64,000 nucleotides of DNA, from IMG/VR virus record IMGVR_UViG_3300009149_000011, positions 1 to 64,000 of that record, one strand, 5' to 3'. Within the stretch, counting starts at the first letter, position 1; each line of letters starts with the position of its first letter. Both the position numbers and the translations under genes were made by a program. Below the pieces are notes generated by a model. It searched no databases and was not told the DNA's origin. It worked only from the letters and a program-made list of their open reading frames with translations. This DNA comes from a virus. This document shows, one piece after another, positions 12,658-63,812 of this stretch.

Positions 12658-13455
12658 ATGAAAAATAAAGATACATCAAAAAGTTTAATATACCAATTCT
12701 TAGATCATAATAATGAACCATTTTATGTAGGTAAAACAAACAATCTACATAGACGTAAACAAGAACATAAAAAAGATTTAAAAAAGAAAGCTAACCTATA
12801 TGTATATAGAAAGATAACCAAACTCATCAGGGATCATAATTACAAACTGAAAATAGATATTGTATCCGAAGGCTTGTCTGAATCAGAAGCAAATGCTATG
12901 GAAATAACGCTTATTAAAAAGTATAGAGATAAAGGATATAAATTATCCAATCTCACAGATGGTGGAGACGGTACTCTGGGTCATGTTCCAGTTTTTACAG
13001 ATGAGTGGAGAAAAAATTTAAGTGAAGCAGCCAAAAAAAGAGTTGCTAGAGATGGAGTTCCATTTAAAGGGAAAAAGCACTCTGATGAAACAAAGAAGAA
13101 ATTAAGCCAGGTGAGAAAAGGGAAAATGCAAGGCAAGGATAATCCTTTTTATGGAAAACATCACACCGAAGAATTGAAAAAAGCTAATGCAGAAAGAGCT
13201 AGAAAACTTTTTTCTGGAAAAAAACAAAATAAAGAACATAAAGAAAAAAGAAGGCAAGCTATGATTAAAAAATTTATTAAAGCTACCCCTCCAAATAAAA
13301 AAACATTTATATGGAAAGATAGCTCTTCTACTCTTTCAGATTTCCTACTTAAAGAATATGGATATAAAGTAGCTAGGGGAACAATAAGCACATACACAAA
13401 AAGTGAAAAAACACTTAAAAGCGGATGGAAATTTAAATATATAGAAAGATTCTAG
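12658..13455 (+). CDS. GIY-YIG homing endonuclease with NUMOD3 repeats
   Basis: LIYQF...FYVGKT...R, LSNLTDGGDG, KGKKHSDETKKKLS, NPFYGKHHTEE. Confidence 0.88.
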   Translation: MKNKDTSKSLIYQFLDHNNEPFYVGKTNNLHRRKQEHKKDLKKKANLYVYRKITKLIRDHNYKLKIDIVSEGLSESEANAMEITLIKKYRDKGYKLSNLTDGGDGTLGHVPVFTDEWRKNLSEAAKKRVARDGVPFKGKKHSDETKKKLSQVRKGKMQGKDNPFYGKHHTEELKKANAERARKLFSGKKQNKEHKEKRRQAMIKKFIKATPPNKKTFIWKDSSSTLSDFLLKEYGYKVARGTISTYTKSEKTLKSGWKFKYIERF

Positions 13456-14756
13456 CTTACTTCCACCAAATATTCTATAGTAGTTTGATTCTCATTGTAA
13501 ACCATATACTCATTATTTCTCAAATCAGCACCACCATGAGCAAACACTGAATCATAATCCCCTAGCCTTTTAAGACGCTCTTCTGTTAATTGAGAATGAG
13601 AGTGCTCCCATTTCTTAATGTGATACTGATTACCAACGTGAACACTATACAAAGCTAAGAACGCTTTGTCACTACTTCCATTTGCCCAGTACGACCCTCT
13701 AAGAGAGGTGTAACCTAAAGATTTCTTAAACTTATCTGAAAAATACGTCGATTGACCAAACATTTTTCCCGTTATTACAGCATTTGAGGGTCTTAACACT
13801 AATCCACCTTCCATGATAGACAACCAGTTCTCATTCCTAGATCCATGCCAGTACAATTCTACCGTTTTGTTATCGGCGCTGTTTCTATATTTATCGAATT
13901 TATTAAATGTCTTTTCATTCTTAACTCTAAAAGCGGACTTGAACATGTTAGATTCAGGGCCCATTTTCTTTTTAATCATGTCAATAGTAGCTTTATCAGT
14001 TACAGCTTCCATTTTTAGCCCCATAAGGTCCACAATAGTACCTGAAGGCTTATCGTCTCCGTCTTCCTCTTCCTCCTCATCTTGAGCCGCATTCATTTTT
14101 ACCTGGCCACGCATTACATCAAGAGTATCTTGCTCACTACCCAATAAGTCTTGAGCCACACTAATAGTATCTTTGTTAATGTTTTCCTCTAAAAGGTAAT
14201 CTCCAACGTGAGCCATTTTTCTTGGAATTACTTTATAAAGAGATAAAAGCTTTTCGTTTACAGCATCCTTATCCGTGCCTACTTTAATCAATCCTACAAT
14301 TTCATCGATAATCTCCTGAGCTCTATCAACCATCTTTACAGTTACGCTTTCAGAAGAAATTTCATAGTTCTCTTTTACCGACTTGTTAGAGTACGAGCTC
14401 AAAAGCTTCATAATTCTCTTAATCTCCGAATCGGCAATGTTAAAAATATCTTTTTCAACCTTTGGCTTCGATGGGTCTTTACTCTCCACATGAAACAGCT
14501 CGGTCATATCTTCATAACCTTTCTTCACCTTAGATCTAAGCGTGGAATCCCATTTAGACATTGGATAAACGGTTATTTTTAGATAAGTCTCTTCTAAAGT
14601 GTCTTGCTTGGTGGGATCAGCCCTACCCCAATGGGCTTCAAATTGACCATCACCTCTTTCGTACATATTGTACACTTTGTTGTTGTTTTTGCCATCACGA
14701 CCCTCAACAAAAACAAGTTTTTTAGCTCCAAGAATTACTTTAGTATCTGTACTCAT
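13452..14756 (-). CDS. PARP-like ADP-ribosyltransferase with WGR and regulatory domains
   Basis: NNNKVYNM...HWGR (WGR); LYKVIPR helical domain; WHGSR, GKMFG...YFSD...KSLGY, NNEYMVY (H-Y-E triad). Confidence 0.9.
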   Translation of the reverse strand: MSTDTKVILGAKKLVFVEGRDGKNNNKVYNMYERGDGQFEAHWGRADPTKQDTLEETYLKITVYPMSKWDSTLRSKVKKGYEDMTELFHVESKDPSKPKVEKDIFNIADSEIKRIMKLLSSYSNKSVKENYEISSESVTVKMVDRAQEIIDEIVGLIKVGTDKDAVNEKLLSLYKVIPRKMAHVGDYLLEENINKDTISVAQDLLGSEQDTLDVMRGQVKMNAAQDEEEEEDGDDKPSGTIVDLMGLKMEAVTDKATIDMIKKKMGPESNMFKSAFRVKNEKTFNKFDKYRNSADNKTVELYWHGSRNENWLSIMEGGLVLRPSNAVITGKMFGQSTYFSDKFKKSLGYTSLRGSYWANGSSDKAFLALYSVHVGNQYHIKKWEHSHSQLTEERLKRLGDYDSVFAHGGADLRNNEYMVYNENQTTIEYLVEVS

Positions 14757-27104: not shown

Positions 27105-27983
27105 TTACTTAGCGTCTAAATGTTTCATAACAAGAGTTAACTTAGGCATCAATCTCTCAATAATATCAGCTTTAGTATGTTCTTCCGTATTTCTTTTAGG
27201 GCAAGAGAAAATCTTAGCTCCTCTGTTCCCATATTTCCCTGTATGCCTCTTATCTGATTTATACATTCTGAATCCTAATCCGTCATCAACAGAGTCTATT
27301 AGAGTAAATGCGAAATCATCGGCAAACCACCTATCTTTACTATAAGTGTATTTTACATCAGGGATTGCATCAGAAACTTCTTTTAACAAATCTGATCCAT
27401 ATAAAGGAGTGGTTTTCAAATACCTTAACACGTCTATGTTGTAGTCCCTATTCACGTAATTACCATCTGTATTAAACCAACAGAACATAATACTACTCCA
27501 TTTACCGCCTATATCCGCTTTAACGGAAATGCCATTCCATGTGGAAACTTCAACTCTATGAGTTTTACAACCCACCTTTCCAAGAGCATCATAACATTTA
27601 TTGACAGTTTCCTCACTCCCATAAACTTCTAATCTTTCATATCCATTCTTAAGAAGTCCGAAATTATAGTTCCAATAAGTCCCCACTGGATACAAAGAAT
27701 TGATCTTATCAAGAAGATCTTTCTCTCTAGCGCTAGTGTAATCCTCTTTGTCTATCGTAAAGAATTCCCCTTCAGGACTCTTGCATAGATACTGAGTTTC
27801 ACTAAGCTCTTTGTCTATAACACAGCCTTTGCCGTATCTCCATTGAGAAAAAGAATCATCATCAAGTTTTACCGCTTTGATTTTTGACACTAGATCTTCA
27901 TCATGATTTTTGAATACAGTGCGTCCACTTTCCTCAATGGTGGATACAACTGTTATATTGTTATTTTTTTCTAAAGTCTCCAT
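27105..27983 (-). CDS. hypothetical protein
   Basis: 292-aa ORF. Confidence 0.7.
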   Translation of the reverse strand: METLEKNNNITVVSTIEESGRTVFKNHDEDLVSKIKAVKLDDDSFSQWRYGKGCVIDKELSETQYLCKSPEGEFFTIDKEDYTSAREKDLLDKINSLYPVGTYWNYNFGLLKNGYERLEVYGSEETVNKCYDALGKVGCKTHRVEVSTWNGISVKADIGGKWSSIMFCWFNTDGNYVNRDYNIDVLRYLKTTPLYGSDLLKEVSDAIPDVKYTYSKDRWFADDFAFTLIDSVDDGLGFRMYKSDKRHTGKYGNRGAKIFSCPKRNTEEHTKADIIERLMPKLTLVMKHLDAK

Positions 27984-29068
27984 TACTTAATAATCGATTT
28001 ATGATATCTAAAATCTTGACCATCCTCAATAGACAGTAATGAGTAATAAATTAACTCGATCACTGAATCAACATCTGTTATTTGAACCGTCTCTACAGAC
28101 GTGTGCATGTACTTCAATGGAAGTGATATCAATTGACATGCTACTCCTCCGTTAGACTTGTAGAACGCTTTTGTATCTGTTCCTGAGTTTCCGTTATAAG
28201 TACCTCTTTGGAATTCAATTTCATTTTCTTTAGCAACATTCAATATTTGCTTGTGTAAATTCAATTGAATATCTGCTCCTCTAAAAACCACTGGCCCTTT
28301 ACCTGATTTAGTGTCTCCAGCAAGTTTTGCATTTAAATGAGGAGTGTGAGTGTCATGACAAACATCTGTAATAATTGCAACGTCTGGTTTAATTCTATTA
28401 GCTACCATTTCGGCTCCAACTAAACCAATTTCCTCTTGCACAGCATTAACTATGTATAAAGAGAAAGGTAGCTCTACATTTGCCTTTTGAAGCTTACGAG
28501 CAACTTGAGCAATCATATATCCACCAATTCTATTATCTAAAGCTCTACTAATGTATTTACCCTTTCTTTCTTCAAACGAAGTATCATAAACCATAGGGGT
28601 TCCTACAAATATACCCATTTCTTCAACCTCTTCTTTAGAGTTGGCTTCGACATCTACGAAAAGAGTGTTTGGTTCTGGCTGTACCGCCCCTTCACCTTTT
28701 CTCTCATGTATTGCTGGCCATCCAAAATGTCCCGCAACAACCCCGTCTTCTCCAAGAATTTGAACTTTCATACCTGGAGCAATATGATGATCAGAACCAC
28801 CATTTCTAACAACAGATATAAATCCATTATCATCAATGTGATTTACCGTCCACCCAATCTCATCAGCATGAGCTTCGATGACAACTTTATAATCTTTGCC
28901 TGGATTAATAATTCCCCAAGCTGATCCATATACATCAGTGTCAACCTCATCTACAAATTGTTTAATGTAGTCAATCCAAATAGCTTGACCTTCCATTTCC
29001 ATACCCGTTGGAGACTTAGCGTTTAAATACTTTTCCAAAAACTCATTTGATTTCTTATTTTTCTTCAT
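27983..29068 (-). CDS. M42 family aminopeptidase (TET/FrvX-like)
   Basis: AHADEIG, ALDNRIG, QEEIG, TDV, GTDT, YMHT metal-ligand motifs. Confidence 0.93.
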   Translation of the reverse strand: MKKNKKSNEFLEKYLNAKSPTGMEMEGQAIWIDYIKQFVDEVDTDVYGSAWGIINPGKDYKVVIEAHADEIGWTVNHIDDNGFISVVRNGGSDHHIAPGMKVQILGEDGVVAGHFGWPAIHERKGEGAVQPEPNTLFVDVEANSKEEVEEMGIFVGTPMVYDTSFEERKGKYISRALDNRIGGYMIAQVARKLQKANVELPFSLYIVNAVQEEIGLVGAEMVANRIKPDVAIITDVCHDTHTPHLNAKLAGDTKSGKGPVVFRGADIQLNLHKQILNVAKENEIEFQRGTYNGNSGTDTKAFYKSNGGVACQLISLPLKYMHTSVETVQITDVDSVIELIYYSLLSIEDGQDFRYHKSIIK

Positions 29069-31443: not shown

Positions 31444-31500
31444 GTCAATAAATATGACCAAAAACATAAAAAGCCCTCCAAAAAGGAGAGCTTTTTTAAA

Positions 31501-31715
31501 TGTAAAGTGAGCTTAGCCAAGCTTCTGTTTTAATCCATCATTTGTCTGAGCCTCTACCTTGTCATTATTGCCGCGAAGGAACCCCGACTAGACTGTTATG
31601 AGTTGCACACCATGTTGCGGAAGTGTAAGCGAATTTCTTCTCCTTCCTCCTTCGGATGTGGCCTGAGCTTCCTCTTAATAATTTACTTATTAAGCGATGA
31701 ATTCTCTTCTTTACA
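31501..31715 (-). ncRNA. rnpB: minimal RNase P RNA (~215 nt)
   Basis: P1 TGTAAAG/CTTTACA, P2 TTCATC/GATGGA, P3 hairpin, GAGGAAGCTCAGGC...ACAGAAGCTTGGCT (P4 with bulged U), P5 CAC/GTG-CAA, P6 CGAAGGA/TCCTTCG, L15 GGTA, AGACAAATG; terminator 31469-31498. Confidence 0.82.
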
Positions 31716-31866
31716 ATTTCCCTTTAACTCTATCAATTCTTGCTTAGTCTTATTGTGACTAGTTCTCTCCGCGTGAAAGGCAAACATATACATAAGTCCA
31801 CACACTCCAGCAATTATCAAAGGAAATGTTAAAGGATTAATTTGCTTTTTATTATTCATAACTTTT

Positions 31867-45106: not shown

Positions 45107-46060
45107 TTAATTTATAATTACTTTCTTGGTGAGTGAGTTTTTACCGTCAGAATAAATTACTAGATACATCCCTGGATTAACGCCATTAACATCTATCACA
45201 CTTGAGTTATAATACTCACCGACTACACATCCAGATATGCTATATATAATTACATTAAAGTTACCCTGATCCGTTTCTATGTATATATAGTCATCTACTA
45301 ATGTAGGGTATATTTCAATTACGTATTCCCCATCACCTTTTTGAACTGCTACAACACGACTATAATCATGTTGACCATCGTAATCCACTTGCTTTACTCT
45401 ATAGTATGCTATTTCACTACTATGGTCAGGATCTACAAATTCATAATTAATTAGGCTTAAGCTATTGCCAGCGCCTTCAACTTGACCTATATTGTGAAAA
45501 TTGATTACATCATAAGATTTTTGAATGTCGTAATAATCATTGTTATTTTCTAAAGCTGTAGCCCAACTAACAACAATTCCATCTTGTCTAGGTTTAGCAT
45601 TTATAAATATAAACTCTACAGGTAAAGCTGTACATGTTACATACTGCTCTGGTATACCTGGACCTTTTATATGATATGTAATTTCCGTGCATCCTATAGA
45701 AGAAGGCGTGGATGTACCGCAATCGCTAACTGGCCTCCAAGAATTAGATGTATTTACTGTTCCAGAACCCCCTCCATTTGGTAACCCAAAGAAAATTGAT
45801 CCTTGATCGCACTCTATTGTGCCATCCAATGTGTACATAGACCCAGAGCTAGGTGTTCCCCCTACAAATGTTATATCATAAGATATGACAACTTTAAATA
45901 CATATCCGCTACCACAAGTAGCTGGTTTAACCAAAGAAACAGCTTCTCCTTCAATATGAACCGTGTACCCCTCTGATGAAACAACATCATAAGAACACTG
46001 CGCAAAACCTGAAACCAAAGCGCGCAACAATAGTGCGGCTACTAATAAAATATTTCTCAT
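45107..46060 (-). CDS. secreted protein with T9SS type-A C-terminal sorting domain
   Basis: Signal peptide (FAQ); LPVEFIFINA...W.TA.E.NN..Y.IQKS; YYRVKQVDYDG; IYPT...GMYLV...KKVII. Confidence 0.85.
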   Translation of the reverse strand: MRNILLVAALLLRALVSGFAQCSYDVVSSEGYTVHIEGEAVSLVKPATCGSGYVFKVVISYDITFVGGTPSSGSMYTLDGTIECDQGSIFFGLPNGGGSGTVNTSNSWRPVSDCGTSTPSSIGCTEITYHIKGPGIPEQYVTCTALPVEFIFINAKPRQDGIVVSWATALENNNDYYDIQKSYDVINFHNIGQVEGAGNSLSLINYEFVDPDHSSEIAYYRVKQVDYDGQHDYSRVVAVQKGDGEYVIEIYPTLVDDYIYIETDQGNFNVIIYSISGCVVGEYYNSSVIDVNGVNPGMYLVIYSDGKNSLTKKVIIN

Positions 46061-62254: not shown

Positions 62255-62265
62255 TTTAAAGTTAG

Positions 62266-62338
62266 AGGGAGTGATGGGGCTCGAACCCACGACCACGGTG
62301 TTAGAGACCGCTGTTCTAACCAGCTGAACTACACTCCC
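62266..62338 (-). tRNA. amber suppressor tRNA(CTA), Trp-like body
   Basis: GGGAGTG/CACTCCC acceptor, GCGGT CT CTA AC ACCGT, GTGGG-TTCGAGC-CCCAT; own promoter motif 62351-62375. Confidence 0.88.
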
Positions 62339-63649: not shown

Positions 63650-63655
63650 AACTTG

Positions 63656-63733
63656 AGCTCCTGGAAGGGATCGAACCTCCGAACTTTCTAAACCTTGCGG
63701 GGTTTAGCGCTTATACCAACCAGCCACAGGAGC
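63656..63733 (-). tRNA. atypical tRNA, extended anticodon arm with loop CCGCAA
   Basis: CTAAACC CCGCAA GGTTTAG; U73. Confidence 0.6.
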
Positions 63734-63739
63734 ATTTTG

Positions 63740-63812
63740 AGCGAAGGGGTAGAATCGAACTACCGTACTATAGGTTTGCGGACCTATCGCCTAACCACTC
63801 GGCAACCTTCGC
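63740..63812 (-). tRNA. Cys-like tRNA with 8-nt anticodon loop TCCGCAAA
   Basis: ATAGG TCCGCAAA CCTAT; U73. Confidence 0.68.

Follow-up and report, generated by a model that had tools for sequence, protein, structure and literature searches.

Does a short RNA gene lying between two tRNA arrays of a phage genome encode a ribonuclease P (RNase P) RNA, and, if so, what could it do for the virus? RNase P is a ribozyme that trims the 5' end of new tRNAs. Its RNA is among the few ribozymes that are universal, and its gene is seen as a housekeeping gene of cells. A reading made from the letters alone (the sequence-only reading) had proposed a phage-borne RNase P RNA poor in specificity (S) domain within the window, by which we mean the whole 64,000-nt stretch that was analyzed. 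This stretch corresponds to the first 64 kb of the 149,006-bp IMG/VR record IMGVR_UViG_3300009149_000011 (G000; CheckV completeness 46%), in which nearly all genes lie on the minus strand and use the standard code. The record encodes a tape-measure protein, a ribonucleotide reductase, a Lon-like protease, and a split DNA polymerase. A protein with a C-terminal sorting domain for type IX secretion suggests a bacterial host of the Bacteroidota type. Our survey of the full-text literature, with most subscription journals outside its coverage, turned up no description of an RNase P RNA gene in a phage or other virus, and a 2024 review of the RNase P field names phages only as sources of substrates.

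We assign a miniature RNase P RNA gene of 217 nt, counted from P1 to P1, to the minus strand at 31716..31500; the extension of P1 by seven perfect pairs sets these bounds. Helices were placed by script on minus-strand coordinates (Table 1). All elements that the sequence-only reading had fitted into about 215 nt (P1-P6, P4 with its bulged U, P15-P17, and the GGU of L15) were recovered in place, on the minus strand, a point on which that reading was silent. The strands of P5 enclose only 43 nt, seven of which belong to P6 and 29 to the GGAAG...CUUCC hairpin that had likewise been proposed at the S-domain position. That reading had also pointed to the Infernal RNase P models as a check, and one of these agreed in part: the archaeal RNase P model of Rfam (RF00373) aligned full-model to 31708..31505 with 32.9 bits (E = 9.4e-8 in a 601-nt search, 5.4e-9 per genome), a score below its curated gathering threshold of 84. 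The match appears in E-value mode and is missed at gathering thresholds; under the curated thresholds, Rfam's hits in the window are limited to tRNAs and a permuted tmRNA. The alignment placed J3/4-P4, J5/15, the L15 region, and the J2/4-P4 3' element correctly and skipped the S-domain columns of the model. The other models did not concur, as the 149-kb record contained no match to RF00010 (bacterial type A) and none to RF02357 (type T) at E up to 10. Since the single-sequence fold energy of the window RNA is ordinary (z = -0.52), the case rests on homology and covariation, not on thermodynamics.

Table 1. Features of the miniature RNase P RNA gene and of the phage record. Positions refer to the window unless prefixed G000:C1; "script" marks elements placed by script.
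Feature	Position	Strand	Remarks
P1	31715-31709 with 31507-31501, plus 31706-31704 with 31511-31509	-	script
P2	31703-31696 with 31539-31532	-	script
P3 hairpin	31694-31674	-	script
P4	31669-31667 and 31665-31662 with 31521-31515	-	script; 7 bp, U31666 bulged
P5	31660-31655 with 31611-31606	-	script
P6 pseudoknot	31654-31648 with 31580-31574 (P17 loop)	-	script; perfect 7 bp
P15	31602-31600 with 31554-31552	-	script
P16	31593-31591 with 31563-31561	-	script
P17	inside P16	-	script
L15 GGU	31558-31556	-	script; on 3' side of L15, invariant in 11/11
CR-I (J3/4 and P4 5' strand)	31662..31674	-	bulged U at 31666; near-invariant in family
S-domain stub	31619..31647	-	29 nt; same layout in 11/11 members, both stems covary
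J5/15, P15, P16, P17, L15	31552..31605	-	P15/P16/P17 covary; J5/15-P15 motif resembles cellular type A
CR-IV-like joining region ahead of P2 3' strand	31539..31549	-	family-conserved; close to cellular rnpB element
CR-V (J2/4 and P4 3' strand, 31521-31515)	31515..31531	-	aligned to RF00373 CR-V columns
Intrinsic terminator-like hairpin and T-run	31468..31496	-	12-bp stem, starts 4 nt past 3' strand of P1
58-aa ORF	31683..31859	-	last 34 nt overlap RNA 5' end; hydrophobic middle
PARP-type ADP-ribosyltransferase domain protein	13452-14756	-	domain match
M42 aminopeptidase	27983-29068	-	
Protein with type IX secretion C-terminal sorting domain	45107-46060	-	host clue
CCA-adding-type nucleotidyltransferase	G000:C1:70145-70534	-	PF01743; counterparts in G025, G040
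DNA polymerase, two ORFs about 1.5 kb apart	G000:C1:141700-144087, 145559-147760	-	both PHROG 405

Upstream of the RNA, a sigma-70 scan called no promoter (Bacteroidota-type promoters lie outside the coverage of that tool). The 58-aa ORF overlapping the 5' end has no Pfam or PHROG match, and either the RNA is cut from the 3' end of its mRNA or the ORF is not real. Just upstream of the RNA on the same strand (31730-31759), the CRISPR repeat model RF01319 gives a single sub-threshold match (27.5 bits, threshold 39), probably due to chance because just one copy is present.

Relatives of the phage were first reached via its DNA polymerase (about 50–55% amino-acid identity). RF00373 gave nothing useful on these genomes; required instead was a covariance model (R1) built from the window sequence and its own structure, that is, from a single sequence. 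R1 matched a 272-nt homologue in a 372-kb phage of 100% completeness (G025; 72.7 bits, E = 2.5e-18). The motif common to these first two sequences, J2/4 plus the P4 3' strand, was scanned through viral and metagenome collections and its hits were filtered with R1; the remaining motif hits, outside the family, were chance matches in coding DNA. Together, these searches brought the family to 11 members by adding 10 further distinct homologues, 199–332 nt long across the family and located in large-phage and metagenome contigs, including a 362.5-kb phage with terminal repeats (G040). The smallest member (L068, 199 nt) is matched end-to-end by RF00373 with 45.2 bits (E = 1.1e-11). The Rfam RNase P models left 9/11 members unrecognised (L059, L060, and L065 among them). 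These nine are the members in which P15 and CR-IV are separated by an additional hairpin or two, at the position of P18, and the only two recognised, the window RNA and L068, are those without.

The same motif, which recovers all phage copies, yielded no family member and nine chance hits in the genomes of 185,579 prokaryotic species (one genome each). No copy was detectable in a near-complete relative of 291 kb (G026), so some related phages can do without the gene. A distant-mode blastn search of the region against 50,697 phage records found no match. Other routes led outside the family: an initial gapped CR-I to CR-V pattern run on viral contigs gave a lone chance hit in a coding region, and loci reached via the 263-aa repeat protein upstream of the RNA were not syntenic, their 14.7-bit RNase P hits falling in coding sequence. 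For the 149-aa protein downstream, one distant relative was found. A truncated relative of the RNA was observed on the minus strand of a further contig (L076:3937-4041; identical in L080). It keeps P1, a P18-like hairpin, CR-IV, the P2 3' strand, and CR-V, has neither CR-I nor a P4 5' strand between the strands of P1, and is followed by a tRNA-like sequence; this locus may represent a pseudogene or else one part of a gene that is split.

Each member was parsed by script from fixed anchors with separate folding of sub-segments, and an identical architecture was obtained in 11/11 members. The curated parse comprises 54 aligned base pairs with 99% canonical cells; 42 pairs vary, 39 of them with compensatory double changes, which include the P6 pseudoknot and P15-P17. 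When 3' strands were shuffled among the sequences, pairing dropped to 50–71%, and 0/10000 shuffles reached the observed pairing for each of P1, P2, P3, P5, P6, the P10-like and P12-like stems, P15, P16, and P17, where P1, P2, P5, and P15 are position-fixed and some helices were picked by maximising within-sequence pairing, which favors the cognate strand. An independent count on the model-based alignment gave 95.9% paired cells compared with 66.1% in shuffles, with 34/43 pairs changed on both sides, and sliding the partner by 1–3 columns as a control left 33–43% paired. P1, P2, and P3 all covary strongly, and P6 does so at 4/4 aligned pairs across the family. By contrast with these helices, P4 and the three inner P1 pairs show no double changes within the family. 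The CR-I/P4 5' strand is invariant in 11/11 members save two one-sided, pairing-preserving changes, as are the bulged U of P4, the J5/15 element, and the L15 GGU throughout. Covariation in P4 and P2 was part of what the sequence-only reading had staked itself on, and each helix provides it in its own way: P2 covaries at 6/8 pairs within the family, and P4, family-invariant, differs from 20 cellular type A rnpB sequences by compensatory double changes at 3–4 of 7 pairs with the bulge in register. Eleven diverged copies with every helix kept by compensatory change argue for selection on the fold. The RF00373 match, the 10 homologues, and this covariation uphold the central proposal of that reading, and we consider it very probable that the family is homologous to RNase P RNA.

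Likeness to cellular type A RNA was found at five sites in preserved order (CR-I, J5/15, L15 GGU, CR-IV, and CR-V). When a phage CR-IV to CR-V profile was run on 30 Bacteroidota rnpB loci (101.5 kb), 10 of the 15 matches fell at the rnpB 3' end (best E = 2.9e-5). Profiles of CR-I and J5/15 detected nothing in the same 30 loci (nhmmer), and the single-sequence model R1 found nothing in cellular rnpB, an uninformative result. At two pairs beside the bulged U, the P4 5' strand does not have the near-universal cellular sequence. Within the ACAGAA element of J2/4, an A replaces the G in 6/11 members (among them L059, L060, L084, L086, and L090); the window copy keeps the G, as do all 20 or more cellular rnpB sequences examined.

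With bacterial type A RNase P RNA (E. coli M1 RNA/rnpB, RF00010), the phage RNA shares P1-P6, P15-P16-P17, the P6 pseudoknot, J5/15, the L15 GGU, and CR-I, CR-IV, and CR-V in the same order, and many Bacteroidota rnpB genes have an almost identical CR-IV element. It differs in length (217 nt vs about 350–420 nt), in the reduction of the S-domain to a 29-nt stub, in a P4 altered by compensatory changes, in being carried by a virus, and in having no match to RF00010. The window copy lacks P7-P9, P13, P14, and P18, whereas a hairpin, or a pair of them, occupies the P18 position in 9/11 family members. The absence of P13, P14, and P18 from the window RNA is shared with archaeal type A, and RF00373 is the only curated model that scores this RNA or L068. 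Unlike archaeal RNase P RNA, however, the phage RNA scores far below 84, leaves the S-domain columns skipped, and apparently has a bacterial host; the better score of RF00373 probably reflects the shorter model, not archaeal ancestry.

Natural and engineered RNAs reduced to the catalytic (C) domain offer further comparisons. Bacterial P RNAs of this kind are poor enzymes in vitro. According to a passage in PMC5839562, engineered C-domain-only bacterial P RNAs still cleave at reduced efficiency; these mini and micro P RNAs are laboratory deletions that provide a precedent for activity of the phage RNA, which is by comparison natural, conserved, and covarying, and has a conserved stub. Diverged and reduced RNase P RNA forms are described in candidate-phyla bacteria (PMC8172020). 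The type T RNA of Thermoproteaceae (Pyrobaculum; Lai et al. 2010, as cited in passages of PMC8172020 and PMC3579882) is likewise natural and about 200 nt long, with a conventional catalytic domain and nearly no S-domain. Type T differs in being archaeal, chromosomal, and associated with archaeal protein subunits, and RF02357 finds nothing in the phage record. An analogy to type T, drawn by the sequence-only reading, therefore holds for size only, and the loss of the S-domain in the phage family is independent of type T.

The hairpin left at the S-domain position is itself a conserved structure. In the window, it consists of a 5-bp stem, a 2-nt 5' bulge (GA), a 3-bp inner stem with a GAAA loop, and a 7-nt 3' loop. 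All 11 members have the 5-bp stem, the 2-nt 5' bulge (GA in 10/11), an inner stem of 3–6 bp, and a conserved 3' loop of 6–7 nt. The inner stem covaries, and its cap measures 3–13 nt in most members and 82 nt in L065. This layout, the expandable inner helix (L065), and the 3' loop beside the closing stem recall P10/11-P12 with CR-III, a region that Infernal skips. We hypothesize that the stub is the counterpart of P10/11-P12 with CR-III, and we caution that, given its layout, recognition of the tRNA elbow need not be wholly lost. Relaxed specificity had been ascribed to the RNA, together with a suitability for tRNAs with variant T-loops. Neither idea fared well, as a conserved stub with a fixed asymmetric loop makes relaxed specificity an assumption rather than a finding, and the canonical GTTCRA T-loop is present in 20 of the window's 22 tRNAs.

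The genomic surroundings supply candidate substrates. All 22 tRNA genes of the window and the permuted tmRNA gene lie on the minus strand, with tRNA arrays at 22.9–25.5 kb and 38–41 kb, and the RNA gene is located between these arrays with its own terminator. Several of the tRNAs are 5–6 nt apart; in dense tRNA arrays, RNase P cleavage separates the precursors (as stated in a passage of PMC7049720). Most family members are found inside tRNA arrays of the same strand. The L068 RNA immediately follows a tRNA, and a tRNA begins 11 nt (L059) or 8 nt (L065) past the RNA, so that RNase P cleavage at the latter two loci would also make the 3' end of the RNA itself. A match to rnpA (PF00825) was absent from the window's record, from the complete 372-kb phage, and from the 362.5-kb phage with terminal repeats, and all three contain a CCA-adding-type nucleotidyltransferase (PF01743). 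Most tRNA genes here are without an encoded CCA, which together with the CCA-adding gene fits an enzyme that reads CCA via a conserved GGU.

On balance, we favor the reading that this minimal ribozyme is active and serves to mature the tRNA arrays of the phage itself, probably together with host RnpA; we infer catalysis, transcription, partner, and substrates. The transcript would fold into a complete bacterial-type catalytic domain (P1-P6, P15-P17, P4 with bulged U, J5/15, and L15 GGU), in which the L15 GGU would pair with the 3' CCA of tRNAs, supplied by the CCA-adding-type enzyme of the phage. Because the phage encodes no RnpA, the RNA would most likely assemble with host RnpA during infection. 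The ribozyme would then remove the 5' leaders of the densely packed phage tRNA precursors, and the permuted tmRNA precursor would probably be a substrate as well, adding a tRNA-maturation capacity independent of host rnpB transcription. The altered P4 next to the bulged U, the A in J2/4 of 6/11 members, the relative devoid of a copy, and the missing promoter call point against activity. The low Rfam scores, the ORF across the 5' end, and the poor in vitro performance of C-domain-only bacterial RNAs also count against the favored reading. More tentatively, we propose that a virus-encoded minimal RNase P captures host RnpA as a chimeric holoenzyme for phage tRNA arrays and trims its own ends where it is adjacent to tRNAs, with the stub as a vestigial P10/11-P12 that still touches the tRNA elbow. 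If true, this would be the smallest bacterial-type RNase P with both substrate contacts.

The same ribozyme might have another partner than host RnpA, working protein-free or with an unrecognised phage protein. We regard this as unlikely: the C-domain surface that binds RnpA is retained, no protein gene is conserved beside the RNA across the 11 loci (within 3 kb), and bacterial P RNA alone is active only at non-physiological salt, as is well established. It would nevertheless agree with the lack of rnpA in three phage records and with the wealth of genes of unknown function in huge phages, and the conserved stub and the extra hairpins of most members could bind a protein. Quite improbable, in our estimation, is a decoy, a catalytically weak mimic that soaks up host RnpA and stops host tRNA maturation. 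The invariant L15 GGU, J5/15, and bulged U would be needless for a pure protein sponge, and the phage's own 22 or more same-strand tRNAs, often beside the RNA, would be blocked too, even if the missing S-domain, the deviation of P4 from the cellular consensus, the replaced J2/4 G in 6/11 members, and the absence of an encoded rnpA are what such a mimic might look like.

That a structured phage RNA unrelated to RNase P resembles the catalytic domain by chance or convergence is very improbable. Two independent full-length Infernal matches (E = 1e-8 and 1e-11), the five conserved elements in the right order with the P4 and P6 pseudoknots, and the reciprocal profile matches in cellular rnpB outweigh the 9/11 members unmatched by any Rfam RNase P model and the failure of the single-sequence model to find cellular rnpB. 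Barely credible is a functionless, decaying fragment of a captured host rnpB, to which the RNA's much shorter length than its cellular counterparts and the related L076/L080 locus with just the 3' half might point, as the 11 diverged copies keep every helix via compensatory changes and no member occurs in the 185,579 species genomes.

Under the favored reading of an active minimal ribozyme, a conserved viral lineage of half-sized RNAs would add RNase P to the translation-related functions of huge phages and give structural and mechanistic work a natural, evolution-tested minimal bacterial catalytic domain. It would also allow direct tests of how much of the S-domain is required in vivo and of whether host RnpA can be captured by a foreign RNA.

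Unusual anticodons were also observed among the tRNAs. The minus strand of the window (62265-62338 and 63655-63812) has a CUA-anticodon tRNA (amber suppressor type) and two tRNAs to which ARAGORN assigns four-base anticodons, and another CUA tRNA lies near an RNase P RNA homologue (L071:3492-3564). Despite the CUA tRNAs, ORF lengths fit the standard code.
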